From a virus (lineage: Duplodnaviria > Caudoviricetes), in the IMG/VR virus record IMGVR_UViG_3300020045_005903, positions 7,644 to 71,643 of that record: a DNA stretch of 64,000 nt; one strand, written 5' to 3'. The notes under the pieces were generated by a model. The model saw nothing but the letters and a program-made list of their open reading frames with translations, made no database searches and was not told where the DNA came from. Below, piece by piece: positions 1,354 to 63,671 of the stretch. The translations under genes and the position numbers were made by a program. Numbering within the stretch: position 1 is the stretch's first letter; each line of letters starts with the position of its first letter.

Positions 1354-1369
1354 GCTTGTTAATAATTTA

Positions 1370-1423
1370 TTTTCATTATTTTGCAACCTTTCTGTTTTAG
1401 TGGAGGTATAAGTAGTATATTTG
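1370..1423 (+). promoter_or_regulatory. Putative phage promoter (TTTCATTATTTTGCAACCTTT ... TATATTTG) upstream of cassette array 1
   Basis: TTGCAACCTTT at 1381-1391 recurs in several intergenic regions; TATATTTG at 1416-1423. Confidence 0.6.
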
Positions 1424-1469
1424 TAGCCCAACCAAAATGAAAAAACTAATCCTTTGCCTATTTAATTTC

Positions 1470-1599
1470 CCATAACGTACCGCAGGTTTATTTAGTGCGG
1501 GATTTAACAGATAAATTAACTTAAAAGCAGAAAATATGAAATTACTAAAATGGCTATTTGGGAGCAGGAAACCCGCATTGAATAAACCTGTTGTTAGCG
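1470..1599. other. attC-like site S1
   Basis: CCATAAC ... arms 1483-1501/1572-1590 (19 bp, 2 G-T) ... GTTAGCG; ATG of next gene lies in the loop. Confidence 0.8.
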
Positions 1600-1799
1600 G
1601 TAGTCTTTCTTTCAAGGAGCAAATGAAACAAGATATTATACCGAGAGTTTGGCAAATGGCTGAAAAAGAAAAAGAGCATTTGAATTGGTTGATAGATAAT
1701 AACGCACCTAAAGATATGGTTGAAACAAGTCAGCGTTATCTCAGCCATTATAGACAAAGACATAAAGAATATATTGAGTATTCGGATGGTCTGTCATAA
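1536..1799 (+). CDS. Cassette-borne hypothetical protein
   Basis: 87 aa; N-terminus (KPALNKPVVSGS) is encoded by the right arm of S1. Confidence 0.75.
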   Translation: MKLLKWLFGSRKPALNKPVVSGSLSFKEQMKQDIIPRVWQMAEKEKEHLNWLIDNNAPKDMVETSQRYLSHYRQRHKEYIEYSDGLS

Positions 1800-1805
1800 G
1801 ATTAC

Positions 1806-1899
1806 CGCTAACGTAAAAGCATTTATGTCAGGCGGGCATAGATGCAACTTTAAATAATAATGCAAGTGTCCGCCCGCTTGCATAAATGCAGTGTTAGCT
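1806..1899. other. attC-like site S2
   Basis: CGCTAAC-GTAAAA-GCATTTATG(T)CAGGCGGG ... CCCGCTTG-CATAAATGC-AGT-GTTAGCT. Confidence 0.85.
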
Positions 1900-1909
1900 G
1901 CCGTAATTT

Positions 1910-2233
1910 ATGATAAAAGTTTATATAGCAAGTCCATACACATTAGGTGATGTGGCAGTAAATGTCAAACTACAACTTGACACAGTAGATGAATTGATGA
2001 ACAAAGGGTTTGCACCTTTTGCACCATTATATTCTCACTTTCAGCACATAGCACACCCAAGACCTTATCAAGATTGGGTTAAGATAGATTTGGAGTGGGT
2101 AAAGGTTTGTGATTGCTTATTAAGGCTTGATGGCGAAAGCAAAGGTGCTGATGGTGAGGTCAGCTATGCAAAAGAATTAGGTCTGCCAGTATTTTATTCG
2201 ATAGACGATATGTGTCTGTATTATGGCAACTAA
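1910..2233 (+). CDS. Cassette-borne DUF1937/DUF4406-like (nucleoside deoxyribosyltransferase-like fold) protein
   Basis: KVYIASPY ... CDCLLRLDGESKGADGEVSYAKELGLPVF pattern; stop TAA lies inside the TAAC of S3. Confidence 0.7.
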   Translation: MIKVYIASPYTLGDVAVNVKLQLDTVDELMNKGFAPFAPLYSHFQHIAHPRPYQDWVKIDLEWVKVCDCLLRLDGESKGADGEVSYAKELGLPVFYSIDDMCLYYGN

Positions 2234-2320
2234 CGGTATCGGGCTTGGCGAAGGTGGGCTTGTAGGATGCTCAATTTTAGCAGGATGTTTCTGCCCACTT
2301 TTGCCAAACCCGTGTTATAA
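2228..2320. other. attC-like site S3
   Basis: AACTAAC-GGTAT-CGGGCTTGGCGAAGGTGGGC ... GCCCACTTTTGCCAAACCCG-T-GTTATAA. Confidence 0.85.
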
Positions 2321-2389
2321 GCTGGCTGCGGTTATTTACCGAAAAACTCAAATCGAAGCACTAAACAAAAGAATTAAAAAAAAGAAGGG

Positions 2390-3169
2390 ATGGAAATAAA
2401 TAAAATATATAACGAGAATTGCCTTGATACGATGGCTAAAATGCCTGATAAGTTTGTGGACTTGGTAGTTACTTCACCGCCTTACAATATGCGAACAAGA
2501 ATAAGGAACGGACAATACACCACAAGAGAGAAAAGCGAACATTTTAGCAAGAAGTATAAGCATTTTGACGATGCCTTACCGATAAATGATTTTTACGAAT
2601 TTCATAGCAGCGTATTGACCGAACTATTAAGAGTATCGAAAATTGTTTGCTATAACTTTCAGATAGTAACTGGAAGCAAAGAAGCGTTTTTTAAAATCAT
2701 TGGCGACTTTAATAAGGACATTAAGGATATTATCATTTGGGATAAAGGAAGCGGACAGCCTGCAATGCACGGAATGGTTTTAAATAGCTGCTATGAAATG
2801 GTATTGATATTAGAAGATGACAAAAGAGCAGGAAGGGCAATACAGAACGCTAAATTCAAAAGAGGCGAAATGAATAACATTTTGAGAATTGGCAGAGGCA
2901 AAAAAGTATCTGATGTTCACGGTGCAATTTTCCCTGAACAACTACCATTTGATTTGATAAACGCTTTTTCAGAAAAAGAAACATTGATTTACGACCCTTT
3001 TATGGGAAGCGGAACGACTGGATTAGTAGCAAGTAAATTAGGCAGAAAATATATTGGAAGTGAAATAACAGAAGAATATTGTAAAATAGCTGAAAATCGT
3101 ATTAAAGAGTGCGGTGGGCTTTTTTTTAATTCTTTTGAAACGGAATTGTCAAACGAAGCAGGAACGTAG
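2390..3169 (+). CDS. Cassette-borne DNA methyltransferase (N4-C/N6-A, beta class)
   Basis: Motif IV TSPPYN before motif I DPFMGSGTT; CLDTM/DLVVTS N-terminus; IGSEI. Confidence 0.9.
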   Translation: MEINKIYNENCLDTMAKMPDKFVDLVVTSPPYNMRTRIRNGQYTTREKSEHFSKKYKHFDDALPINDFYEFHSSVLTELLRVSKIVCYNFQIVTGSKEAFFKIIGDFNKDIKDIIIWDKGSGQPAMHGMVLNSCYEMVLILEDDKRAGRAIQNAKFKRGEMNNILRIGRGKKVSDVHGAIFPEQLPFDLINAFSEKETLIYDPFMGSGTTGLVASKLGRKYIGSEITEEYCKIAENRIKECGGLFFNSFETELSNEAGT

Positions 3170-3177
3170 CAGCTTGC

Positions 3178-3195
3178 TTATAACTATTATATGTA
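3178..3195. other. attI-like terminal site of array 1
   Basis: TTATAAC followed by TATTATATGTA with no hairpin; 3181-3195 is identical to 12600-12614. Confidence 0.7.
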
Positions 3196-4355: not shown

Positions 4356-5989
4356 AAAGAGAAATAAGATATTATCAACAAGACGCTTATAATGCCGTTA
4401 TGTCCGCCAAAGCAAAGGGTCATAAACGAGTATTGATTACTATGCCTGGGGGTACAGGCAAAACATTCACTTGCGCTAACATAATCAAAGACTTTGGTCG
4501 CAAATGTTGGATTACACACGAAGAGTCCCTTGCCGAACAAAGCGCTATTGCCATCCTTACAGAAATGGAAATTTTACCCGAAGCAGATATTATTGAAGCG
4601 GTAAATGCTCACGGAGGATTAGTAAATTTACTTTCTAAAAAACCATTTTACTTAGGCGAAAACGCTAGAATAGTTTGGGAAAACGTCGGGATGGTTAAGG
4701 CAGACATATTTGATATTGACAAGCCATTAGTAATATGCTCAGCGCAAACTTTGTGGCGGAGACTCGATAAAATACCTAAAGATTGGTTTAGTGTTATTGT
4801 TTGCGACGAGGGGGATTTATTCGGATCGGTTAGCTTTAAGGCTCCTTTAGATTACCTAACTCCTGAATTAATTATCGGAGCTACCGCAACTGCATTTCGC
4901 GGAGACGGGATGTTAATGGAGGATATTTTTGAAGCATTAGTTTATGACTACCCTATTGAACAAGCCATAAAAGACAAATACCTTACCGAAATTAACGCCA
5001 TTGTTGTTCGCACATCCGCAAACCTAGACGAAGTTCATTCTTTTGGAGGAGACTTTAATCAAAAAGAATTGGTTGAAAAGGTGAATACTTTAGAGCGAAA
5101 TAATTTAATCGTTAATAAGTATATTGAGTATTGCAGCGGACAACAGTTTATTTGTTTTGGCGCAGACGTACAGCACGTAATAGACCTCCACGAAGCCTTT
5201 AAAGAGAAAGGAATAGTTACAACCTATGTGGTTAGCGATAAAGATAAAATGGAAATTGGAACTGACCGCAAAACTATTGTGCGAGATTTTAGGGAGGGTA
5301 AAATAATGGGACTTGTAAATTATAATATTTTTAGTGCCGGATTTGATGTTCGAGATTGCGGATGTGTAATTTTAGGCTGCCCGACAAAATCTAAAAGAAA
5401 GTTTTTACAACAGCTATATAGAGTTACAAGATTAAAAACCGAAAAGTTTGTAAATAAGTTCGGGCAAATAGGAACGGTTCTCGATATTGTTGATGGCACT
5501 TCTAAGCATAAATTAATTAACACTCACGAACTAGACAAAGGTAAGCCAATAGAAGATAGGGTGTTTGTTTCTAATGCAAACAAGCAATTATTAATTGAAG
5601 CTAGGGTTGCTAAAGACAAGGTTTTTGTTACTAATTACAGAAAAGAAGACAAGGTAGTTGATTTATTTAAATTGCCGCTAATTAAGATTAGCGACTCAAT
5701 GAGAATGGGAGAAATGGCTACCGAAGCTCAGCTAAACGCAATAGCTAAATGGGATTATGATATTGTAAATACCGTTTATACAAAGCGAATGATTAGTGAG
5801 ATATTCGGCAAACAAGAAGCTACTGCAAAACACATTTCGTTTTTGAAATGGAAGGGATATGATACGAGTGGATTTGTAAGTGTGGCAGAAGCGGCGGCAG
5901 CAAGTAAAGAGATTAAGCTAAGAGAAGAGAAGTTAGAGAGAGATAAGAACCAAAACAACATAAAAAATAATTTACCATTTAAATTTTAA
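4352..5989 (+). CDS. Superfamily 2 (DEAD/DEAH-like, ResIII/UvsW-type) helicase
   Basis: Q-motif RYYQQDA, Walker A MPGGTGKT, DEGD, GATATAFR, FSAGFD, QQLYRVTR. Confidence 0.88.
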   Translation: MKREIRYYQQDAYNAVMSAKAKGHKRVLITMPGGTGKTFTCANIIKDFGRKCWITHEESLAEQSAIAILTEMEILPEADIIEAVNAHGGLVNLLSKKPFYLGENARIVWENVGMVKADIFDIDKPLVICSAQTLWRRLDKIPKDWFSVIVCDEGDLFGSVSFKAPLDYLTPELIIGATATAFRGDGMLMEDIFEALVYDYPIEQAIKDKYLTEINAIVVRTSANLDEVHSFGGDFNQKELVEKVNTLERNNLIVNKYIEYCSGQQFICFGADVQHVIDLHEAFKEKGIVTTYVVSDKDKMEIGTDRKTIVRDFREGKIMGLVNYNIFSAGFDVRDCGCVILGCPTKSKRKFLQQLYRVTRLKTEKFVNKFGQIGTVLDIVDGTSKHKLINTHELDKGKPIEDRVFVSNANKQLLIEARVAKDKVFVTNYRKEDKVVDLFKLPLIKISDSMRMGEMATEAQLNAIAKWDYDIVNTVYTKRMISEIFGKQEATAKHISFLKWKGYDTSGFVSVAEAAAASKEIKLREEKLERDKNQNNIKNNLPFKF

Positions 5990-5993
5990 GATT

Positions 5994-6152
5994 ATGAGAA
6001 AAATTTTAACACACTCATTGTGGGCAGCAATATACGTTCTATTTATAATAGATTATTTTACAACCGCTGACAGAAACAATACCTGTTTATTTTTTATGGT
6101 AATAATTCTGCTTAACATTTGGATTGAACTTATTAATAATAAAAAACCATGA
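5994..6152 (+). CDS. Small two-TM membrane protein (not in ORF track)
   Basis: 52 aa MRKILTHSLWAAIYVLFII...; fills the gap and its stop overlaps the next ATG. Confidence 0.6.
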   Translation: MRKILTHSLWAAIYVLFIIDYFTTADRNNTCLFFMVIILLNIWIELINNKKP

Positions 6153-6436
6153 AAATAGAAAAAGAAATCAAGTACACCCTATCCATTAATGAACCCGATG
6201 GACACGGAATAGACTACAATAAAAACTTGGAGTCTGACATCGCCGGATTATTAATATCCCTTACTGTCCTACAGACTAATTTAGAGTCTTTAAAAGCCAC
6301 TAAAAAGCTAGTGAAGGGTACGGATAAGAAATTTGTATCTCAGCAAATAAGCTATATTTCAGCTTCTTTAAAGGGGGTTAAAATACTTGTTGTGCAACTA
6401 TGTGATAATTATGAAACTTTAATTGAGAGGAAATGA
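6149..6436 (+). CDS. Hypothetical protein
   Basis: 95-aa ORF in operon. Confidence 0.7.
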   Translation: MKIEKEIKYTLSINEPDGHGIDYNKNLESDIAGLLISLTVLQTNLESLKATKKLVKGTDKKFVSQQISYISASLKGVKILVVQLCDNYETLIERK

Positions 6437-6648
6437 CACCAAAAGAAAAAGCTAAAGAATTGGTTGGATTGTTTGAATTTTCAAACGAAAGCCCTATTCA
6501 TAGAAACGATATTGACTGTGCATTAGTTTGCGTTGATATAATAGACAAAATATTCGTTAAAACTACCCCGCAAGACAATCCTTATGAGTATCTTTTTCAG
6601 CTTGAATATTGGCAAGAAGTTAAAAAAGAAATTACAAATCTGCAATAA
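6433..6648 (+). CDS. Conserved phage hypothetical protein (MTPKEKAKEL...YWQEVK type)
   Basis: Characteristic N- and C-terminal motifs. Confidence 0.7.
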   Translation: MTPKEKAKELVGLFEFSNESPIHRNDIDCALVCVDIIDKIFVKTTPQDNPYEYLFQLEYWQEVKKEITNLQ

Positions 6649-6683
6649 AACAAAATAATATTAAAATCTTACAAACTTGAAAT
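6631..6683. promoter_or_regulatory. Tandem TTACAAA-type operator pair
   Basis: ATTACAAATCTGCAAT and TTACAAACTTGAAAT, 37 bp apart; same arrangement at 17891-17940. Confidence 0.55.
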
Positions 6684-7088
6684 ATGGACAAAAAAGAAAT
6701 GGCTGAAAAATGTCACATTAACATCAGTAAATTTAAACACGCTAATTTATTGACTTGCGAGTGGTGTACTTATAAGCATAAATTAACTACAATATATTAT
6801 ACAGACAACGTAAACCCCGCCGCTTATTGCAGAGAATTGTGGTGGAGTTTTGTATTAAGGTGGCTAAGGCTAAAAAAATATATTACATTTGGAAAGCCAA
6901 CAAATATAGCTGTTATCGAACCTTGTCCGCCACCAATTAAGCAAACAGGGTTTGGAATTATTAAGGACGAACCAATTTCTAATTTTAGAATAAGGTTTGC
7001 AGGAGAAAAAATAAAAGCAATCGTTACCTCAGAAGTAAAAAAAGATTGCGATGGAAACATTTATTATGATATAAAGCCAACTGAATGA
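6684..7088 (+). CDS. Hypothetical protein
   Basis: 134-aa ORF. Confidence 0.65.
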   Translation: MDKKEMAEKCHINISKFKHANLLTCEWCTYKHKLTTIYYTDNVNPAAYCRELWWSFVLRWLRLKKYITFGKPTNIAVIEPCPPPIKQTGFGIIKDEPISNFRIRFAGEKIKAIVTSEVKKDCDGNIYYDIKPTE

Positions 7089-9451: not shown

Positions 9452-10455
9452 GCAAGAAACCAACCACAGAAGTAACGGTATCTAATCCTAAACTTCAAAA
9501 AGACCTAGAGTTAGTCCAATCCCTACAAACCCAAGTGGACACCGTAGGAACTCAATTACTGCAAGTAAAAGTGATGGATGATTCCACACTATCAATCTGC
9601 CAACAAAACCTCTCTAAAGTCAACTCTATAGTTAAAACTATCGAAGAGAAACGAGTGGAACTTAAAGCTCCCTACCTTGAAGCCGGTAAACAAATCGACT
9701 CCCTTTGCAAGTCTATTACCGACCTAGCAGTGAAAAGTATTACCCACGCTAAGTCTGAAATAGCTAATTGGGAAAATGCTAGGTTAGCACTCGCCGCAGC
9801 AGCACAAGCTGAGGTTGACGCAAAAGCTAAAGCTGAAGCTGATAAGATCGCCGCAAATGAAACTCGTAAAAAAGGAATATTAGACTTTATTTCAACTACA
9901 CTTAAACCTTACCTTCAATCTACTTATGACTCTTTAAAATCAGCAGAGGACTGTGATGTATTCTTAGCTAAGATTAAAAAAGACTTTCCTGGAGAAGCCA
10001 AGTTTCAAGAATATTTACAGGACGCTAATCAAATTAGAGATAATTACATAGATTTAATAAATGGTAAAAAAGCTCAATTTAGTGCGGCGGCGAATATCTC
10101 TGAATCTGAATTAGCTTTAATGAAAGAGAAAGAAAGATTAACCCTAATGCAACAAGAACTTGACAATGAAAAATTAAGAGTTAAGCAGCTAGAGGAGTAT
10201 GCTAAATTAGAGAGAGAAAGAAAAGCTGCTGAGGAATTAGCAGAGCTAGAAAAAGCTAAATTACAAGCGGCTGCAGGCCTAGAGAAAACTAAAGGAGTTA
10301 GATACATTGATAAGTTTGAGGTGATAGATTTTGATAAAGTGCCAAGAGAATTTTTATGTGTAGATGAGGCTAAAGTTAAAGCTTATCAAAAGGAGAATAA
10401 AATAGGAGAGATTACCGGAATTAGATTTTTTAAACAATCAAGCATAGTAGCCTAA
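9448..10455 (+). CDS. Coiled-coil protein, DUF1351/Gp157/Gam-like
   Basis: Long coiled coil; KRVELKAPYLEAGKQID; C-terminal DFDKVPREFLCVDEAKVK; stop TAA forms the TAAC of S4. Confidence 0.55.
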   Translation: MSKKPTTEVTVSNPKLQKDLELVQSLQTQVDTVGTQLLQVKVMDDSTLSICQQNLSKVNSIVKTIEEKRVELKAPYLEAGKQIDSLCKSITDLAVKSITHAKSEIANWENARLALAAAAQAEVDAKAKAEADKIAANETRKKGILDFISTTLKPYLQSTYDSLKSAEDCDVFLAKIKKDFPGEAKFQEYLQDANQIRDNYIDLINGKKAQFSAAANISESELALMKEKERLTLMQQELDNEKLRVKQLEEYAKLERERKAAEELAELEKAKLQAAAGLEKTKGVRYIDKFEVIDFDKVPREFLCVDEAKVKAYQKENKIGEITGIRFFKQSSIVA

Positions 10456-10569
10456 CGGTTTGCACATTGGCGTTGTTGCCACAGAATTTAATTAAAAACA
10501 ATAAACTTTAATATTATGACAAAAGTATCAAACGAAGAGCAAAGCAATAACGCCAATGTGCTGTTAGGT
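10450..10569. other. attC-like site S4
   Basis: GCCTAAC (RYYYAAC) ... arms 10462-10479/10544-10561 (17/18 WC, 1 G-T) ... GTTAGGT (GTTRRRY). Confidence 0.9.
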
Positions 10570-10824
10570 GAAGTTACATTGTGTGTAGGCTTCAATGCTC
10601 ACCGATTAAAAGAGAATGACGATTATCACAAAAAAGAATGTGATTTTGTGAAAGCCATTAACCAAGAGATGAAATATAATAAAAGCACTTTAGCTCAAAT
10701 GGTGAACCATCCCGACCACAAAGAATGGCTTGAAGAAAATGAGCAAAAGATTGTGTTAAGCGTGATACAATGGTTAGGAACGCCAGTAGGACAGGGATTT
10801 TTGGAGAAGGTGGCAAAAATGTAA
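10516..10824 (+). CDS. Cassette-borne hypothetical protein
   Basis: ATG in the loop of S4; SNNANVLLGEV is encoded by the right arm and core. Confidence 0.75.
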   Translation: MTKVSNEEQSNNANVLLGEVTLCVGFNAHRLKENDDYHKKECDFVKAINQEMKYNKSTLAQMVNHPDHKEWLEENEQKIVLSVIQWLGTPVGQGFLEKVAKM

Positions 10825-10828
10825 TTTC

Positions 10829-11257
10829 ACCTAACGTTTTCGGGCTAAGAGAAGTAAAACCCTTTAGAGCGGTGGGGGATTTCATCGCTCAAATTAAATA
10901 TAAATAACTCAAATGGAAAAAACATTGAGCAACACAACAGCAAGCCAAGCCAAAGACAACGTGAAAGACATCGTGTTTTGGGGCAATGGCGACACCTTCA
11001 AATTAATTAGCAAAGCATCATCCAAAAATGAAGGTTGGATGAAATCTTCAAAGGCAATGGAAATTGAAGGTGTAGGATGCGTAGTGCAAGTTACCACCCA
11101 ACAAGGTGAGAATATTGCAGAGGCGGTAACTTTTGTACCTAATGTAAAAATTGAGGAAACAAAAGGTGATGATGGAGTGGTAACTTCTCGTAAGTTGATT
11201 GCCATTTAGTACGGTGCGTGGGCAAAGGGTTTTATTTCTTCTTAGCCCGTGTTATAA
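10829..11257. other. Giant attC-like site S5 with a gene in its loop
   Basis: ACCTAAC ... arms 10841-10865/11224-11249 ... GTTATAA. Confidence 0.8.
10913..11209 (+). CDS. Conserved phage hypothetical protein inside the S5 loop
   Basis: 98 aa; GWMKSSKAMEI..GCVVQVTTQQG..AEAVTFVP; AT-rich leader. Confidence 0.8.
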   Translation: MEKTLSNTTASQAKDNVKDIVFWGNGDTFKLISKASSKNEGWMKSSKAMEIEGVGCVVQVTTQQGENIAEAVTFVPNVKIEETKGDDGVVTSRKLIAI

Positions 11258-11296
11258 GTCAGGTGGGCATTTTCGCCCACTTGCGTTAAACAATAT

Positions 11297-11402
11297 GTTA
11301 GTGGTAGTGCTTTAGAAGTATGCCCTGGCTGTAAAACGAAAAATAGACATTGGTACGCAAAAGATTATTGGTGTTGTGCATTTTGTTAGCATTACCGCTA
11401 AC
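11297..11402 (+). pseudogene. Mini-cassette remnant with a start-less Cys-rich reading frame
   Basis: Ends GTTAGTGGTAGTGCT/AGCATTACCGCTAAC are complementary; frame VSGSALEVCPGCKTKNRHWYAKDYWCCAFC* has no in-frame ATG. Confidence 0.5.
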
Positions 11403-11474
11403 GTTTTGCAGCTAATGGCTGGTGGCTTTTATAGGCTGTTAGTTTGTGCCACTTGCCATTAGGTGCTGTTATGT
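11396..11474. other. attC-like site S6
   Basis: CGCTAAC-GTTTT-GCAGCTAATGGCTGGTGGC ... GCCACTTGCCATTAGGTGC-T-GTTATGT. Confidence 0.85.
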
Positions 11475-11535
11475 TGGTGCGCTGGCAAGTGTGTGGGGCA
11501 GTTTTATTTTATTAATTTTTAAAAAAGCGAAGGAA

Positions 11536-11808
11536 ATGAAGTTAACATTATTACAAAGATTAATTGAGTTTGTGATTCAATTTAAATACAAACATAATTT
11601 ACAGCCGACCTACAACTATAAGGTTGGTGACAAGGTGAAATATAACTGGAAAGGAAAAGTTATGCTTAGACCAGTTATAAACGATAGAGCAGAGGATGTT
11701 TTGGTAATAAATGAAGTAAAGCATAAAAGGAATGAGTTTATCAACTATCAAAATACAAGAACAAAAAAACGAGGATGGTTAGATGCTTACTGGTTAAAAC
11801 GTGCGTAG
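11536..11808 (+). CDS. Cassette-borne hypothetical protein
   Basis: Start moved from 11446 (inside S6) to MKLTLLQ after AAGGAA; YKVGDKVKY motif. Confidence 0.7.
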   Translation: MKLTLLQRLIEFVIQFKYKHNLQPTYNYKVGDKVKYNWKGKVMLRPVINDRAEDVLVINEVKHKRNEFINYQNTRTKKRGWLDAYWLKRA

Positions 11809-11837
11809 GCTTTTAAAAATTAATAAAATAAAATTGA

Positions 11838-11926
11838 ACATAACGGTTACAGCTTGCCGATAGTAAGGCAAATACCCGAAAAAAATAAAAAATCATTTGC
11901 CTTATTTTGGCAAGGTGGTGTTAAAT
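11838..11926. other. attC-like site S7
   Basis: ACATAAC-GGTTA-CAGCTTGCCGATAGTAAGGCAAAT ... ATTTGCCTTATTTTGGCAAGGTG-GT-GTTAAAT. Confidence 0.85.
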
Positions 11927-11968
11927 GCAGTGCGGACTTAATTAATAACTAAAAAATAAATAAATAAA

Positions 11969-12193
11969 ATGGCTGACTTAAAAACATTAGTAAAAGACAA
12001 CAAGGTGAAATTCGATTTTTACCGAGCAGGAGTAATGTATTACACCGTTACATCCGAAGAAAAAACATATCGCTTTCCTGTGCCACTTGAGGATATAGGA
12101 GATGCGACATTACTTGCAGAAGATAAAGCCATTTTATTTATGCGTTACATACGAAAGGCAATTAATAGCAATGAGCTTCAAACAGTGCAGTAG
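11969..12193 (+). CDS. Cassette-borne conserved phage hypothetical protein
   Basis: 74 aa; FYRAGVMYY..FPVPLEDIGDATLLAEDKAILFMRYIRKA. Confidence 0.8.
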   Translation: MADLKTLVKDNKVKFDFYRAGVMYYTVTSEEKTYRFPVPLEDIGDATLLAEDKAILFMRYIRKAINSNELQTVQ

Positions 12194-12199
12194 CATTGC

Positions 12200-12328
12200 A
12201 TTTAACGTTCGATGCTTGTGGCAGGTGGCATTAAAAGCACAAATGTAAATTAACCGATAAAGTAAAATTGAAAAACAGAATTTAATATTAACCGCAGACC
12301 GCCACTTGCCTACAAGCATTTGTTAGTG
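12200..12328. other. attC-like site S8
   Basis: ATTTAAC-GTTC-GATGCTTGTGGCAGGTGGC ... GCCACTTGCC(T)ACAAGCATT-T-GTTAGTG. Confidence 0.85.
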
Positions 12329-12350
12329 GTCTGTTTAAAAACAAAAAGCG

Positions 12351-12578
12351 ATGGCAGACTTAGAAAAAATTAGACAAGCACAAATGATTGCAGGTGAAAA
12401 CGCTGTGATTGCAGGATTAAAAGCAAAAGGATTGCTACCTAAAGATGAACAGAGCGAGGACTCGTTGCTATTTTTCAACTTATTTAGAGAAGTAAGAAAT
12501 GAAATAGCAACGGAGGAGGGCTATGTGCTGCAAGATGCAATACGAATAACATTTGATAGATGGATGAAGCGTGGGTAG
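12351..12578 (+). CDS. Cassette-borne hypothetical protein
   Basis: 75-aa ORF between S8 and the attI-like site. Confidence 0.75.
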   Translation: MADLEKIRQAQMIAGENAVIAGLKAKGLLPKDEQSEDSLLFFNLFREVRNEIATEEGYVLQDAIRITFDRWMKRG

Positions 12579-12596
12579 GCTTTGTTTTTAAATTGC

Positions 12597-12614
12597 CACT
12601 AACTATTATATGTA
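12597..12614. other. attI-like terminal site of array 2
   Basis: CACTAAC-TATTATATGTA; 39 bp upstream of the recombinase ATG; 15-mer shared with 3181-3195. Confidence 0.75.
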
Positions 12615-12653: not shown

Positions 12654-13487
12654 ATGGAAATTCCAAGATGGCACGAAAGATATTGTATGGACTCAGCTTT
12701 AAAATATCCAAGTAAAGCAACCCAAGAAAACTACCAAAGTACAGTTTTAGGTTTTTTGCATTACTTTAAAAATGATGTTGACCCCTCTCACATAAAAACG
12801 GATGACATTAAAAAGTGGCTCTTAACTTTTGAAACGATTAATACTCGTAATCATAAATTATGTGGTATAAAATCCTTTTATCAAATTACCGTTGGGATGC
12901 CTTTAAAATTGGATAAAATACCATTCAGCAAAAAGGACAACAAGCTACCGGAAATTTTAGAGAGAGAAGAGATACAGTCATTATTAAAAGTTTGCACAAA
13001 CACAAAACACAAATTAATAATTACAATCCTTTATGCTTGCGGACTAAGGATAAGTGAAATTTTAAATCTTAAATTAATTCACATTAACAAAGATACCATT
13101 GATATTAAATGTGCTAAAGGCAGAAAAGATAGAATAGTTCAATTGCCAACGAGGGTTAAGCAAAGAATTGACGAATATACTTTGGAGTATAAGCCTATTG
13201 AGTATTTGTTTAATGGTCAGTTCCCCGAAAAAGAATTAAGATATAATGAAAGGTCTGTAAACGAATTTTTAAAAAAATATGCTACGTTAGCAGGAATAAA
13301 AACCCACGTTCATGCGCATAAAATTCGTCATTGTTATGCCACCCATACTTTAGAAGATGGAACAACCTTGCCATTTTTACAAGAAATGCTTGGACACAAT
13401 AGTCCTAAAACTACATCAATATATATTCACACATCGAGGCGATCAATTGCAAGACAAACGTCTCCCGTTGATGGAATGGATTTTTAA
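12654..13487 (+). CDS. Tyrosine recombinase (XerC/D / integron-integrase-like)
   Basis: Catalytic set GLRISE, KGRKDR, HKIRH, LGH, TSIY; 277 aa. Confidence 0.95.
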   Translation: MEIPRWHERYCMDSALKYPSKATQENYQSTVLGFLHYFKNDVDPSHIKTDDIKKWLLTFETINTRNHKLCGIKSFYQITVGMPLKLDKIPFSKKDNKLPEILEREEIQSLLKVCTNTKHKLIITILYACGLRISEILNLKLIHINKDTIDIKCAKGRKDRIVQLPTRVKQRIDEYTLEYKPIEYLFNGQFPEKELRYNERSVNEFLKKYATLAGIKTHVHAHKIRHCYATHTLEDGTTLPFLQEMLGHNSPKTTSIYIHTSRRSIARQTSPVDGMDF

Positions 13488-13489
13488 CA

Positions 13490-13768
13490 GTGGCAAGAAG
13501 ACTTAAAATACCCGATGAGCTATTAATCCTAAACCCCACCTTAAACAAGAAGGAACTAAGGACTATCCTAAATGTTATCCTGAATAGCCGCCGGAATAGA
13601 ATGCGTCAAGCCTACATATTTGACATAAGATTACCTAGCTTAGGGAGAATGAGGTCTAATGGTAATAAGGTACATAAACACAACAAAAAGACATTGAGTA
13701 GGGACAGGAAAAGAAAGAGAATTGAAACTAAAACTAATGACTTAAAGAGAGTTAACCTATTATGGTAG
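13490..13768 (+). CDS. Basic hypothetical protein
   Basis: 92 aa, Lys/Arg-rich. Confidence 0.6.
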   Translation: MARRLKIPDELLILNPTLNKKELRTILNVILNSRRNRMRQAYIFDIRLPSLGRMRSNGNKVHKHNKKTLSRDRKRKRIETKTNDLKRVNLLW

Positions 13769-13772
13769 AATT

Positions 13773-13817
13773 ATTTTCATTATTTTGCAACCTTTATTAA
13801 AATAAGTAGTATATTAG
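13773..13817 (+). promoter_or_regulatory. Putative phage promoter
   Basis: ATTTTCATTATTTTGCAACCTTT...AAGTAGTATAT, nearly identical to the 1370-1420 element. Confidence 0.6.
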
Positions 13818-17683: not shown

Positions 17684-17904
17684 CAAATAGACTACCGCGC
17701 AAAACAAAGAAAGCAATAAAAGGTCGTATTTTAATTTACGACATACAATCCATGCCCAAATTCGCAAATCTAGAGAGATTGCTTTATGAGTTTAAAAACC
17801 ACCAATTGGTTCTTTGGGACTCACTACTTGGCGGACAAAAACCACAAATAATTGGGAATAAAAAGAAACTAAAATTTATAGACAGTCCTCTTACAAATCT
17901 GTAA
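17680..17904 (+). CDS. Hypothetical protein
   Basis: 74-aa ORF. Confidence 0.6.
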   Translation: MTNRLPRKTKKAIKGRILIYDIQSMPKFANLERLLYEFKNHQLVLWDSLLGGQKPQIIGNKKKLKFIDSPLTNL

Positions 17905-17940
17905 TGAAATGAAATTATTTAAAAATATTACAAACTTGAA
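17891..17940. promoter_or_regulatory. Tandem TTACAAA-type operator pair
   Basis: TTACAAATCTGTAAT and TTACAAACTTGAA, 37 bp apart, abutting the ATG. Confidence 0.55.
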
Positions 17941-18231
17941 ATGAATTATCCGCACTTTAAAAAATTTACACTTATGGAAGAAACAAACTCTACCGCCTCA
18001 GATAAAACAGAGTCATTTATTTACACCAAAGGCTCTATTGTTAGCAGAATAGCCGACGAAGAAATAAAAGACTTTTTTATTTGGATGATACGCGAAGCCA
18101 ATATTGATGTGGTGGACGCAGAAACCGCAATCGAAGTAAGAAGCTTAGAGGATAAACAAGGATTTGTTCCCGTTATGACTATTGATGAATTAATAACCCA
18201 TTATAGAGAATGCACAAGTCAGAAGAGTTAA
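17941..18231 (+). CDS. Hypothetical protein
   Basis: 96-aa ORF. Confidence 0.65.
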   Translation: MNYPHFKKFTLMEETNSTASDKTESFIYTKGSIVSRIADEEIKDFFIWMIREANIDVVDAETAIEVRSLEDKQGFVPVMTIDELITHYRECTSQKS

Positions 18232-32462: not shown

Positions 32463-32507
32463 ACTAGTTATACAAAGTTTAAGTTAAAAGGTTGCAAAAT
32501 AATGAAA

Positions 32508-35500
32508 CTATCTTTTTAGAGTGAATATACTCTTTACGAATTGAAGTATCTTAACGCTAGTAGTAACGGTAGTTGGGTTAGTAGTCCAATTCTTTTTAAC
32601 TAGCTTAATCTTTAAATATGAGTTAGTTATGCGCCCCGTTGAACTCAGTGGTAAATTACTGCAAATCTTATCGTAAATATATCTGTACCAATTACTAGTA
32701 GAGGCTATATTCGCGTCTGTTGCCGTTTGGCTCTCCGCCGTAATAGTAACTGTAGTTGGAAGTACGTTGTTTCCGTGTTGCTCTATATTCATTACACTGA
32801 ATGATTCTTGTGTTTTAGGATTAACTATAAACTCAATCTCATTATTAACCACCGCTCCAAATTCCTTATTGTAAACGTAATCCGGCGCTGTAGCTTGTCC
32901 TAATGTTGCAGGCATATTCCTTACCCAAATTTCATTAGTAGTATTAATAAGTGCCCACGCGCTTCCTCCGCCCGCAGGAGGGTCGGTAAATGCCGATACC
33001 GTTCCCGCTGTTGTACAAATATATTCCTTAAATAAATATGCCACTATGTCGCTAACTACAAATGCTGTGGCTCCCATTCCTGCTCCATAATATTTAGTTT
33101 TATTCTTAGCATTATTTGAAGTAACTACAATCTGATTATGATTATGAGATATTGCAGGAGTCCATTCGCTAAAATGAGAGAATAGTTTATCTGGATGGTA
33201 ATATGCTATAGTAAAGTCTTTAGATAAAGCTTGTTCTACCGCCGCGTAATTTAAAAACTTAAATGTTAAGTAAGTCATTTTAAACTTCGGATCGTACACC
33301 CCTGTAATTCCTACTCCTGTTAAAGGTCTGTCAGATACTTCTGAGAATGTAGTGGAATTTAAAGGTGTTGTATTTGTTATGGTAGAGCCTAAGTTATCCA
33401 CAATTATTTCATTGAAATAACCATTCATTCCTTCTACTTTACTTATCTCTGAAATTCCTGTTGATAGGTCTAATGCCACCACTGCTTTTCTGCGCATATC
33501 AAACCATACGTACCCAAACTCTGTTGAAGTCATTCCGTGTTGGTGTTGATTGCCAAAGTATGTGCTAATAGGGTCAAATCTATCTACTACTCCGCCTGTT
33601 CCAATAGTTGTTGGTGCGCCCGTTTGAGCTGCCAATAACTGTCTTTCTAATATTGGAGTGGTGCTTATTTGTGCGTTTTGAGCTACAATAGTTTGCCCGC
33701 GCTTAGTAACAAGGTTATTAATCTCTCCGTATTGTCCGTCAGCGTCTTTATAATCGTTAGTTAGAAATACTCTATAAGAGTCAATAGCTTCTCCTACAAA
33801 TTTCTCTCCTGCAAATCTTACCCTTTGAGGAAATAAATTTCCATAAGTAAAATTAACGGGTAATGCAGGATAAGCAAATTGTATTCCTTCAGAAGCATAA
33901 GCTTGATTGCAATTAAAACTTTCAAGTCTAGTTGGATAAAACACTGCTGTACCACCATTGTCCACTCCGTTATTTGCTCCTGTTCTACCTCTTCTTAAAT
34001 CATAATTTACATTAGTTTGACAGGGAAATTTTAATTCCCATCCGTATTCATTTGCTGTACCGTCGGGAATTACATTAACATAATCTATCAAAGAAGTAAA
34101 GCAATCTCCGCCCCAAATTTCAACGTTATTAAATGTGTAAACTCCTGCGGTTAATACATCTGCCTTTACTTGTGTTGTAATTGGCTGAAAATGTCCTGTT
34201 GAAATATATAAAGTATTTGCTTTTGCTGTATCAGAAGTTCCTCCGTATTGATTAGCATTAGCTACAGTAACATCAATTAAAAGTTTATCTCTACTTGCCG
34301 TTCCGCTATACACTACGCTAGCAGAATCTAAAACCGAAGTAGTTGTTTCTATAATTGTGCTTCTACCTCCAACGGAAGTTAGGTTACTAAAATTTGTTGA
34401 CCCTCCGCAAGTGTTTTCTGAAATATTTCCTGTCGCCGCTTGAAATTGCGGATTGTTTCCAAATGTATAATTACCGCTTCCAAAGTTAGCGGTAGAAACC
34501 CCTTCGCTTGCTGTTACCATAGCAGAAATAGGGTTTTGCCTAGAAACGGCATCGCTAGTCTGAGTAAAATATCTTGTCTCTGCGTTTGTTGCAGATTTTG
34601 TTTTCATATATTGCCCAACTCCGTATGCTGTTGGAGAATACAAAACATTTCCTTCTAAAAACGTTTCTCCTGCAGCATATTCGGGCATTGGAAATCCACA
34701 TAAAGCGTCAGGACAAATAAAATTATAATATCTATCTAAAGACGTAATCCAATTAGAATCTCCTTGAGTTGGTCCTGCCCAAGGTTTTGCTACTGTACCA
34801 GAGTAACTTAGTTGCATTAAAAGACCCTCTGTAATAATTCTCTTATCCCTATCAGCCCTCATAATACTAAAGCCGCTCATTTGGTCTATCTCCGCTTGAG
34901 TGAAGGTTATTCCATTTATGTTTAATCCTCTAGTTTCTAAGAAGTAAAAGTCGTATGCTGCAGTTGTTGTGCGAGTCATTAAAGGAGTTGTCGCCAAAGT
35001 AGAAAACGTAAAGTCTCCTAGCCATCTTGCATACATTGGATTGCCCTTTAAATCAAATGGCACTAAAGCAAATCTATATTTTTCATTCGCCCAATATCCT
35101 CTTTGATGATGTGACCTAGCAGGACTTTTGTAACTTAGAAATCCGTCAATGTTAGCTATAACTTCTCTTATAGGAACAGCGGCAGTAGTGTTGTATCTAT
35201 TTCTTACAAAAGCCCCTCTCACTTGAGACGCTCCAGGAATTGTAACTCCCGTCGCTCCCGATACTCCAAAGAAAACTTCATTAATGGTATAAACTACTGC
35301 GTTGTAAGTAACGTTTCCGCCCGCAATACTCGTAACTACATACCATAGTCCTGCGTAAATAATTGTAGGATTAACGTAAATGCTTATGTCGTTATACTGA
35401 ATAGTGTTCGGGCAAGTGATTATTCCTCCTGGAACATCTAGCGCTTCGTGTACAGGAAATCTACTGCTTATCTCAGATAGTGTAAATGAAGTGTCTGCCC

Positions 35501-62240: not shown

Positions 62241-62270
62241 ACACACAAAGATAACAAAAGGTTGCAAATA
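62241..62270 (-). promoter_or_regulatory. Promoter of leftward arm
   Basis: - strand TTGCAACCTTTTGTTATCTTTG: phage motif plus TAnnTTTG. Confidence 0.65.
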
Positions 62271-62314
62271 AATAAAAATTATTCTAAAATTTTTTTATAA
62301 AATATTTTCACCCC

Positions 62315-63603
62315 ATTTCAATCTTGTAATAAAATAACAAAACTCCAAAATATTACAAATCTGTAATAACCACCCAAAAAAATTTTATAATTTTTATATA
62401 CCCGAAGGGGGTTATATGGGGTGTTTTAGCGTTTCGATTTTGAAGTGCCTTGTGGGGGGGCTTGTTTTTATGGTTTGGATTGTTTTGAAGTTTATTAGGA
62501 TGGTTTTTTTGTTTATTGGTTTTTTATTAGCTTGTTGTTTGTTTTATGGTTCCTGTATATAGGTATGGTATAAATTAGGTTAGATTATGCCGCCGCCCCA
62601 TAATTTACAAATTTGAAAGATAAACCGGTTATATGCTTCGCATGCTTAGTTAATCAATATCCTGGTTAACATTGGCCGCGATCTTATCAGCTCACTATCT
62701 ATATTACAAACTTGTAATAAAACAGAGGTCTATTGATTTTATTACAAACTTGTAAGACGCGCGGACAATACCGGCTTATTTAGAATTAGTCTATATTACA
62801 AACTTGTAATACTTTGGCACGATATTATATTATTTAGAACCATTCTAATCTTATTACAAATTTGAAATAAAGCATATTTATTGAAACCTTTCAACTTTGT
62901 AATACGTATAAACAGATATAACTAACATTAAAACCGGCCGCAAATAACAATAAAACAGCCCATTTACGGTGAACTAACGTACAAACTGAGTGAGTGGCGC
63001 AAATAATCAAGCCCAAACCACTTAATGAGCGAGTAAACAAATTAAAAACAACCAAATAAACCAACTAAAACCCCCATATCATGAAAGCAATAACAGAAGT
63101 ATTTAACCAGGAATTTGTCCCAATGGACATAGACAGAACCGTAATTCTCATTATAAGCCTATTGGACAATAGCCTGCAGTAAGAATATGTATAACCAACC
63201 CTTGTGAGTATAAAGTGTATTAAAGGGGGATTATATAGGTAATATAGGGGTAATAGGGAAGTAAATAAGTAATAGTATAAACCAATTAAAATAATAGAGA
63301 TATGTATACAGTTATAATGAGTCACCCTAATAAGGTTAGTTTTAGTTTTAAGATAGATGGTATTGATAGTTGGTATATAGAAGGATTAAGGAGATATGAA
63401 AGAATGGGATTAATAGGAAGGTATTATATTAGTTGTGGTATGTTCTGTAATGTAATAGGGTAATATTAGTAAGATTAGCCGCCGCGCTAAAAAGCTAAAA
63501 TGTGATAAAATACGTTTATTACAGAATTGAAATAGTGATGAGGTGCAAATATTACAAGTTTGTAAGAAAATAGAAAAGTTTAAATATATTACAAATTTGT
63601 AAG
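62315..63603. repeat. Cluster of about 11 palindromic ATTACAAnnTTGTAAT-like boxes in the non-coding strand-switch region
   Basis: Copies at 62315, 62352, 62604, 62703, 62741, 62795, 62853, 62889, 63518, 63551, 63588. Confidence 0.8.
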
Positions 63604-63671
63604 AAATAACGCAACCTTTAATTAATAGCCCACGTATAACTAAATATAACCAACACTAAAAAATAGAAACC

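Follow-up and report, generated by a model that had tools for sequence, protein, structure and literature searches.

The recombinase gene and its surroundings

The window analyzed here is a 64,000-nucleotide stretch of phage DNA corresponding to bases 7644-71643 of a 71,643-bp viral record (IMGVR_UViG_3300020045_005903), whose completeness is estimated by CheckV at 94%. On its plus strand is a 277-codon ORF that an earlier note on this DNA had described as an array-associated recombinase lacking a segment specific to integron integrases (IntI). The ORF is real: its product matches the Pfam Phage_integrase family (PF00589) at 1e-32, a search that the note had proposed, and it is the sole protein across the 71.6-kb genome to do so. 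The protein is built of a SAM-like N-domain, whose Pfam match is slightly under threshold, and a catalytic domain only. In an alignment of 80 homologs the residues of its RKHRHY active site (R132, K155/K158, H222, R225, H248 and Y257) are invariant. A very basic 92-residue ORF (window 13490-13768) begins 3 nt past the recombinase stop codon, but it may not be a gene, because it has no Pfam match and its position is not conserved among related loci. The motif TATTTTCATTATTTTGCAACCTTT is repeated where gene blocks start (window 1360-1391 and 13772-13795, and 32487-32518 and 62257-62286 on the minus strand); as one copy comes after the recombinase gene, the latter is suggested to be the final gene in its transcription unit.

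Hairpin sites and docking sites

Upstream of the recombinase gene, small ORFs are separated by imperfect hairpins of one design (Table 1). Read from its 5' side, each hairpin comprises five variable bases followed by TAAC (the R'' box), a spacer that is mostly 5 nt long with the sequence G(G/T)TTT, 3-4 bp, a fixed c.a or g.g mismatch, a longer G.T-rich stem and a variable loop; on the 3' side, the returning arm is followed by a spacer, mostly of 1 nt, and by GTTA with five variable bases (the R' box). Among the phage elements, the spacer lengths of 5 nt and 1 nt are found repeatedly, as is the mismatch at stem position 4-5. Seven sites of the window precede the recombinase gene (10448 to 12330) and three form a remote array. 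The R' box of the site at 10448-10571 complements the next R'' box perfectly, the loop of the site at 10827-11259 contains an ORF (10913-11209) between arms L'' (~10841-10854) and L' (11238-11249), and the short hairpin at 11260-11293 looks like a minimal or empty site. Among the cassette ORFs, 2390-3169 encodes an N6/N4 DNA methyltransferase (PF01555, 1.6e-33) and 1910-2233 a DUF7768/DUF4406 protein; five further cassette ORFs gave no significant Pfam match (one was sub-threshold), and no tRNA or Rfam family was found in or near the array. One hairpin of the same design, located at genome bases 5537-5607 (window -2107 to -2037), is inverted and lies amid minus-strand genes, and site polarity therefore tracks the coding strand in this phage.

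Table 1. Features of the phage locus (window positions) and length of the K-to-H interval in the proteins compared.
Feature	Position	Strand	Details
Tyrosine recombinase gene, no IntI insertion	12654-13487	+	277 aa
attI-like docking site	12595-12614	+	GCCACTAAC-TATTATATGTA; 40-59 nt before the recombinase ATG
attC-like hairpin	12198-12330	+	R'' GCATTTAAC, imperfect stem, R' GTTAGTGGT
attC-like hairpin	11836-11928	+	R'' GAACATAAC, R' GTTAAATGC
attC-like hairpin	11394-11476	+	R'' ACCGCTAAC, R' GTTATGTTG; g.g mismatch at the fourth stem position
Short hairpin, then R' box	11260-11293	+	9-bp stem, 6-nt loop; R' GTTAAACAA
attC-like site	10827-11259	+	R'' TCACCTAAC, R' GTTATAAGT
attC-like hairpin	10448-10571	+	R'' TAGCCTAAC, R' GTTAGGTGA
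Remote array, three hairpins of the same design	1468-2322	+	1468-1601, 1804-1901, 2226-2322
Second docking-site copy	3176-3195	+	GCTTATAAC-TATTATATGTA; closes the remote array, after methyltransferase cassette ORF 2390-3169
K-to-H interval, this phage protein			61 residues
K-to-H interval, IntI1			100 residues
K-to-H interval, Bacteroidota proteins at 446-497 bits on TIGR02249			100 residues in 20 of 20
K-to-H interval, E. coli XerC			62 residues
K-to-H interval, E. coli XerD			66 residues

The array ahead of the recombinase gene is followed by a putative docking site resembling attI, the initial five bases of which complement the R' box of the hairpin before it. The sequence TAACTATTATATGTA occurs in two identical copies in the window, one at 12600 before the gene and the other at 3181, at the end of the remote array. 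This second docking site is 9.4 kb from the first, and its R'' box is the exact complement of the R' box at 2314-2322.

Other repeats are present in the window. Palindromes of the sequence TTACAAAnnTGTAA were considered as a component of the system and rejected, as they are a different repeat that is unrelated to the TAAC hairpins; they are located at 6632-6706, 17890-17965, 62315-62903 and 63518-63605, cluster in a 1.4-kb non-coding strand-switch region while also being scattered among early genes, and look like operator or promoter elements. The possibility that the base of each hairpin forms a dif-like pair of inverted arms was also set aside, as the R-box and L-box duplexes are direct repeats. 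Within cassettes, AT-rich inverted repeats flank single ORFs (window 11499-11524/11811-11836 and 12334-12345/12581-12592). Metagenome contigs retain these frames with the ORF replaced (joints 11538-11794 and 12354-12580), and the frames may constitute a second, nested layer of gene swapping.

The recombinase lacks the IntI-specific segment

Integron integrases are defined by an additional domain (PMC4889954; also the archaeal integron study). Its I2 element has been characterized as a domain of 20 residues that makes room for extrahelical bases and was 'not identified elsewhere' (PMC4792948), and PMC7790495 presents the acquisition of I2 as the step from double-strand to single-strand recombination. 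The earlier note held that this insertion is absent from the phage protein, in which it counted about 55 residues between the motifs KGRKDR and HKIRH. The insertion is indeed missing and the interval is short, but the count was too low: KGRKDR occupies residues 155-160 and HKIRH residues 222-226, leaving 61 residues as compared to 100 in IntI1 (the motifs that the note quoted were placed at residues 179-190, 197-202 and 213-216). Alignment of the protein to VchIntIA (2a3v) using HMMER yields two pieces, in which query residues 17-172 match 16-177 and query residues 163-272 match 201-317; residues 178-200 of 2a3v, i.e. the I2 region, are skipped, and further gaps are also needed. As far as residues can establish it, this simple tyrosine recombinase is intact in its catalytic site and has no IntI-specific I2 insertion.

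The family models are in line with the note's expectation that IntI profile screens would miss the enzyme. It scores 141.4 bits on TIGR02249 (cut-off 265), with the match split into two stretches, and 63.4 bits on NF011946 (cut-off 435), and so does not behave as a typical IntI with I2, the outcome that would have refuted the note's proposal. It is also below the cut-offs of the XerD (142.5 bits versus 329.6) and XerC (141.3 bits versus 335) models, and its best NCBIfam model, NF040815 (archaeal XerA / 'integron integrase'), gives 178.8 bits versus a cut-off of 220. NF040815 was rejected as a specific marker, as housekeeping Xer-like paralogs of the same genomes score almost equally high. By sequence, the closest solved structure is XerA (4a8e), which aligns without a break. 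Structure prediction, which the note had also called for, produced an AlphaFold (AF2) model with a mean pLDDT of 89 from the 80-homolog alignment. The top Foldseek matches of this model are XerA structures 5hxy and 4a8e (E 1e-12 to 2e-13), followed by VchIntIA (TM 0.68) and then XerH; the structural alignment to VchIntIA contains ~28 more columns than query residues. The predicted fold is that of an XerA/IntI-like, two-domain simple tyrosine recombinase.

Homologous loci and the cassette rule

The protein belongs to a family of similar-sized proteins with more than 700 metagenome members, encoded on contigs of up to 78 kb, and its closest relatives (P0002 and P0003) are 84-86% identical to it. 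We analyzed 31 loci encoding metagenome homologs, which were found with an alignment as the query; a viral scan using the single protein as the query returned no match, nor did a DNA search of the phage collection. Every one of the 22 homologous loci whose upstream sequence is available has the docking motif, in which xxxxxTAAC precedes TAYTATAT(R)(K)A, 50-95 nt ahead of the start codon (in one locus TATC replaces TAAC), and the same arrangement occurs on three phage-like MAG contigs. Across 24 non-redundant sources (23 loci and the window), 58 hairpin elements lie on the recombinase strand versus 4 on the other strand only, counts that hinge on the definition used by the hairpin scanner, which demands exact TAAC and GTTA. 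This survey of homolog neighborhoods bears out the description 'array-associated', as hairpin arrays lie upstream of the gene in the window and in most homologous loci; the note would have been refuted by homologs that are not tied to such arrays, and instead the arrays and docking site are consistently associated with them. Two loci (L005 and L010) have the docking site and no hairpins in the sequence examined. On a related viral contig (L008:6001-6991) the recombinase gene is present as two overlapping ORFs, 6001-6444 and 6422-6991, and is probably a frameshifted copy; this contig retains four hairpin sites and the docking site despite its split recombinase gene.

The variable bases of neighboring sites are related to one another. 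When the R' box of one hairpin is compared to the R'' box of the next, at least four of the five variable positions are complementary in 26 of 35 neighboring pairs. The mean is 3.86 matches, a value not attained in any of 10,000 shuffles; with shuffled partners it is 1.76 (sd 0.19). The R'' and R' boxes of one and the same hairpin share 1.69 matches, which is the background level. Judged by these boxes, the hairpin arrays obey the integron cassette rule, a pattern that would be expected from a circular intermediate with one complete site.

Exchange of cassettes between platforms

In nine pairs of related platforms, sequence similarity extends on into the recombinase gene and the cassettes upstream are unrelated. 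In seven of the nine pairs the similarity starts at TAAC or no more than 2 nt before it; in the remaining two it starts 8-10 nt before TAAC. Identities within pairs are as high as 99.7% (L014/L030), 100% (L025/L031) and 99.0% (L020/L029). At the level of sequence, these comparisons establish that cassette content has been swapped between otherwise identical platforms, with breakpoints at or near TAAC.

Single cassettes of the window are also found, at 95-99% identity, in metagenome contigs from wastewater, sediment, groundwater and seawater, where they end at TAAC cores; what moves is therefore a hairpin plus the gene on its downstream side. One contig piece covers exactly 12203-12603, another covers 12315-12603 and then runs into a different hairpin rather than the docking site, and further pieces start at 10831 or stop at 11284, the latter ends coming from two metagenomes. 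Some contigs share the frame of the site at 10827-11259 and skip its interior (joints 10854-11234, 10888-11230 and 10900-11244); unknown letters lie between the two sides of these joints, which were not taken as precise deletions. Public sequencing runs contain 6-8% of the sampled words of the window only, and no run with the whole phage was found; the parts of the window without such cover carry no information either way.

Bacterial relatives and phylogeny

Among 185,579 species genomes (one per species), homologs with more than 45% identity were found only on three MAG contigs of 12-81 kb (46-55% identity). The same scan revealed hundreds of chromosomal homologs that are 33-42% identical; most belong to Bacteroidota, others to Ignavibacteria and Bryobacterales. 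These bacterial proteins are insert-less, with a K-to-H interval of 58-59 residues; their TIGR02249 scores are 191-210 bits, split over two stretches, and on NF040815 they reach 207-230 bits. Some of them would receive the PGAP name 'site-specific tyrosine recombinase/integron integrase' (NF040815). At least two hairpins lie behind the gene in 10 of the 18 bacterial loci that have a full 6-kb downstream flank. The bacterial hairpins are ~126 nt long and obey the cassette rule, and they run antisense to the cassette genes, which is also the polarity of classical integrons, so they are not an mRNA feature there. In addition, the bacterial loci contain a conserved TATA-box/GTTA site ~85-140 nt past the stop codon, the reverse complement of which resembles the phage docking site. 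A full-length protein that exceeds the IntI cut-off and has a 100-residue interval was seen in 90 of 301 sampled genomes from the phylum of a Flavobacterium genome (loci L127-L146); in the literature, complete integrons are described as nearly absent from Bacteroidetes.

A quick IQ-TREE phylogeny was computed (LG+G4, 124 rows), from which the insertion columns had been removed by an occupancy filter. IntI is monophyletic with 100% SH-aLRT support, to the exclusion of the phage clade. Support is 83% for the phage clade (99% with two bacterial rows added) and 81% for the bacterial short clade, and the IntI, phage and bacterial short clades together form a superclade with 98% SH-aLRT support, within which the branching order of the three is unresolved. 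Left out of this superclade are E. coli XerC/D and the Xer-like paralogs of Flavobacterium and Ignavibacteria genomes (G001-G003). The earlier note had spoken of a 'distinct XerC/D-like clade'. Because in this tree the phage clade stands with IntI in a superclade that lacks the housekeeping XerC/D enzymes, 'IntI-related but insert-less' is the better description.

Proposed mechanism and alternatives

We consider it probable that the gene at 12654-13487 encodes the cassette recombinase of a phage-borne, integron-like platform, although its enzymatic activity is inferred. The protein is not an IntI by the defining feature of that family, and most likely performs the task of one in a phage platform. 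The enzyme would cut within TAAC and move units consisting of a hairpin and its downstream gene into and out of the docking site; the plus strand would take the role of the integron 'bottom' strand, with RYYYAA/C lying 5' of the hairpin. Against this reading stands the wholly comparative nature of the evidence: neither a recombination product nor a circular cassette nor activity of the enzyme has been seen. The most speculative part of the proposal, for which we put the odds at about even, is that the sites recombine in the form of folded single strands. The enzyme might then read the constant 5x1 asymmetric internal loop and the fixed c.a or g.g mismatch rather than grip extrahelical bases by means of an I2 helix; the 'different recognition mode' suggested by the earlier note is an inference. 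In the phage elements the plus strand folds more stably in 49 of 54 cases (-29.1 vs -23.8 kcal/mol, Wilcoxon p = 1e-8), and in the bacterial arrays the two strands fold equally well (-39.2 vs -39.0 kcal/mol). The strand favored in the phage coincides with the mRNA strand and is G-rich, and GC skew across the region is positive, so the G.T bias may reflect RNA structure or base composition.

The same enzyme and cassettes could operate without any folding if the sites recombined as ordinary double-stranded DNA, which would require no I2. Each 'hairpin' would then be two inverted duplex sites bracketing a small module, much as in the pdif modules on Acinetobacter plasmids, which are moved by XerC/D. 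This explanation is compatible with the plain Xer/XerA-type fold of an enzyme without the insertion, with the site that holds a whole gene inside its 'loop', such that the L-box arms bracket cargo as the R-box arms do, and with the equal folding of both strands in bacterial arrays. An I2-less enzyme might indeed act on duplex DNA only, since the literature has IntI needing I2 for the extrahelical bases of attC (PMC4792948, PMC7790495). However, the halves of the hairpin are not equivalent duplex sites, as their spacings are 5 nt and 1 nt in most phage and bacterial elements, a c.a or g.g mismatch is retained at one stem position, and array polarity is fixed relative to the docking site. A hairpin site of Polaribacter phage P12002L was, moreover, recombined by IntI1 as a single strand (PMC9892861), but its membership in the same site family is an inference. 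The 5x1 asymmetry, the conserved mismatch and the fixed polarity argue for a structure-specific substrate; we regard recombination of duplex sites as unlikely, while a duplex mechanism is not excluded.

Two explanations that dispense with a cassette recombinase fare worse. Were the protein an ordinary lysogeny integrase, the site upstream of its gene would serve as attP and have nothing to do with the hairpin cassettes. An attP site commonly adjoins int, and related genes of cultured flavobacterial phages are annotated 'integrase', but the 277 residues include no arm-binding domain, and the remote array ends in another copy of the docking site. The five bases to the left of TAAC are variable and complementary to the hairpin before them, which makes the docking site an internal junction. 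The scan of 185,579 species genomes, in which homologs above 45% identity occur only on the three MAG contigs of 12-81 kb (host flanks were not assessed), also speaks against lysogeny, and we find this explanation very hard to credit. It is scarcely more credible that the hairpins are RNA-level elements, such as terminators or processing or stabilizing structures, with genes swapped through homologous recombination at repeats and the recombinase serving another role, e.g. multimer resolution. The phage hairpins do lie on the coding strand in every case and are G.U-rich there, and in T4-type phages modules bounded by promoters and stem-loops shuffle by homologous recombination. Breakpoints produced in this manner should be spread over the repeats, but they fall at TAAC, or up to 2 nt before it, in seven of nine platform pairs and 8-10 nt before it in two. 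The R'/R'' complementarity around each gene is instead the signature of a one-site circular intermediate, bacterial hairpins of the same polarity lie antisense to the cassette genes, and no Rfam family was matched.

Implications

Should the phage recombinase act on these hairpins as proposed, the consequences would reach beyond this phage. It is possible, though we would not quite give it an even chance, that I2 is unnecessary for folded-hairpin recombination; that complete integron-like platforms are operated by an insert-less sister lineage of IntI, both on Bacteroidota chromosomes and in the phages of these bacteria; that virulent phages use such platforms to shuffle small accessory and anti-defence genes and possibly trade them with their hosts; and that I2 is a refinement of one lineage and not the innovation from which integrons arose. 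The definition, detection and mechanistic explanation of integron integrases all rest on the I2 insertion, and screens with IntI profiles overlook entire integron-like lineages. The 'integrase-less' attC clusters of virulent phages may be served by a dedicated enzyme from the same or related phages, and phages of this kind could be miscalled temperate merely for carrying an 'integrase' gene. The idea that I2 enabled single-strand recombination can now be tested directly, using an enzyme that is small and simple and sites that are short.

Comparison with known systems

The phage enzyme resembles XerA, XerC and XerD in its size and domain layout, and XerA is its best match by HMM, by sequence among solved structures and by fold. 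It nevertheless falls below the cut-offs of all three, branches away from XerC/D and is phage-encoded beside cassettes; no dif-type site was obvious in an inspection by eye only. The insert-less bacterial recombinases are closer in kind, as they share the short K-to-H interval, the TATA-box docking site and the cassette rule, and their hairpins match the phage design in having 5-nt and 1-nt spacers, a c.a mismatch and a TTGGCG stem. They differ in forming a separate clade with 33-42% identity to the phage protein, in the orientation of the gene, which faces the array, and in the 70-100-residue N-terminal extension of many of the proteins. A previous phylogenetic study noted that the insertion is not fully conserved within an 'integron-like subgroup' and did not follow this up (Smyshlyaev et al. 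2021, PMC8138268); it gives the members no function, sites or arrays, and deems the insertion essential for integron function. Our literature search found no paper describing an insert-less recombinase coupled to such arrays.

Hairpin sites in phages have been reported before. Qi et al. 2023 (PMC9892861) described clusters of attC sites without an integrase (CALINs) in virulent phages, including Polaribacter phage P12002L, showed that one P12002L hairpin site is recombined by IntI1 when delivered as a single strand, and treated phage attC sites as strays from bacterial integrons. As in the present phage, these are phage-borne hairpins flanking small genes and methyltransferases; the present phage adds a dedicated, conserved recombinase and a docking site. 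In P12002L (L033, 38035-38936 and 30008-30056), a DNA methylase gene is flanked by hairpins that have GTAAC/GTTAC cores, share the layout described here and follow the cassette rule, and the annotation of this phage lists no tyrosine recombinase. In Polaribacter phages Freya_10 (L152, 1-4147) and Freya_1 (L153/L151), the sequences are 99.9% identical from ~67 nt before the integrase gene onward and unrelated upstream of that point. The Freya integrase is ~30% identical to the recombinase of the window, TTGCTAACACCC precedes the integrase gene in both Freya and Cellulophaga phage Ingeline, and the Freya locus may represent a distant cousin of the platform in culturable phages.

The closest parallel is to integrons, whose integrases (IntI1, VchIntIA; TIGR02249) are tyrosine recombinases of the same 98% superclade as the phage enzyme. 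Like intI, the phage gene adjoins its docking site and points away from the array; the sites are likewise hairpins with RYYYAAC-like and GTTRRRY-like boxes, the crossover is placed in the AAC/GTT core, and the complementarity between R' and the next R'' is found in the phage arrays as well. Unlike the phage enzyme, IntI contains a ~40-residue insertion with the I2 helix, and the phage hairpins carry a 5x1 asymmetric loop and a fixed mismatch. The replicon of the phage system is the phage genome itself, which has a second docking site. Finally, the gene, docking site and array polarity of the phage are arranged as in a classical integron, whereas the phage hairpin moves with the gene downstream of it, so that the cassette genes alone are reversed relative to the site.
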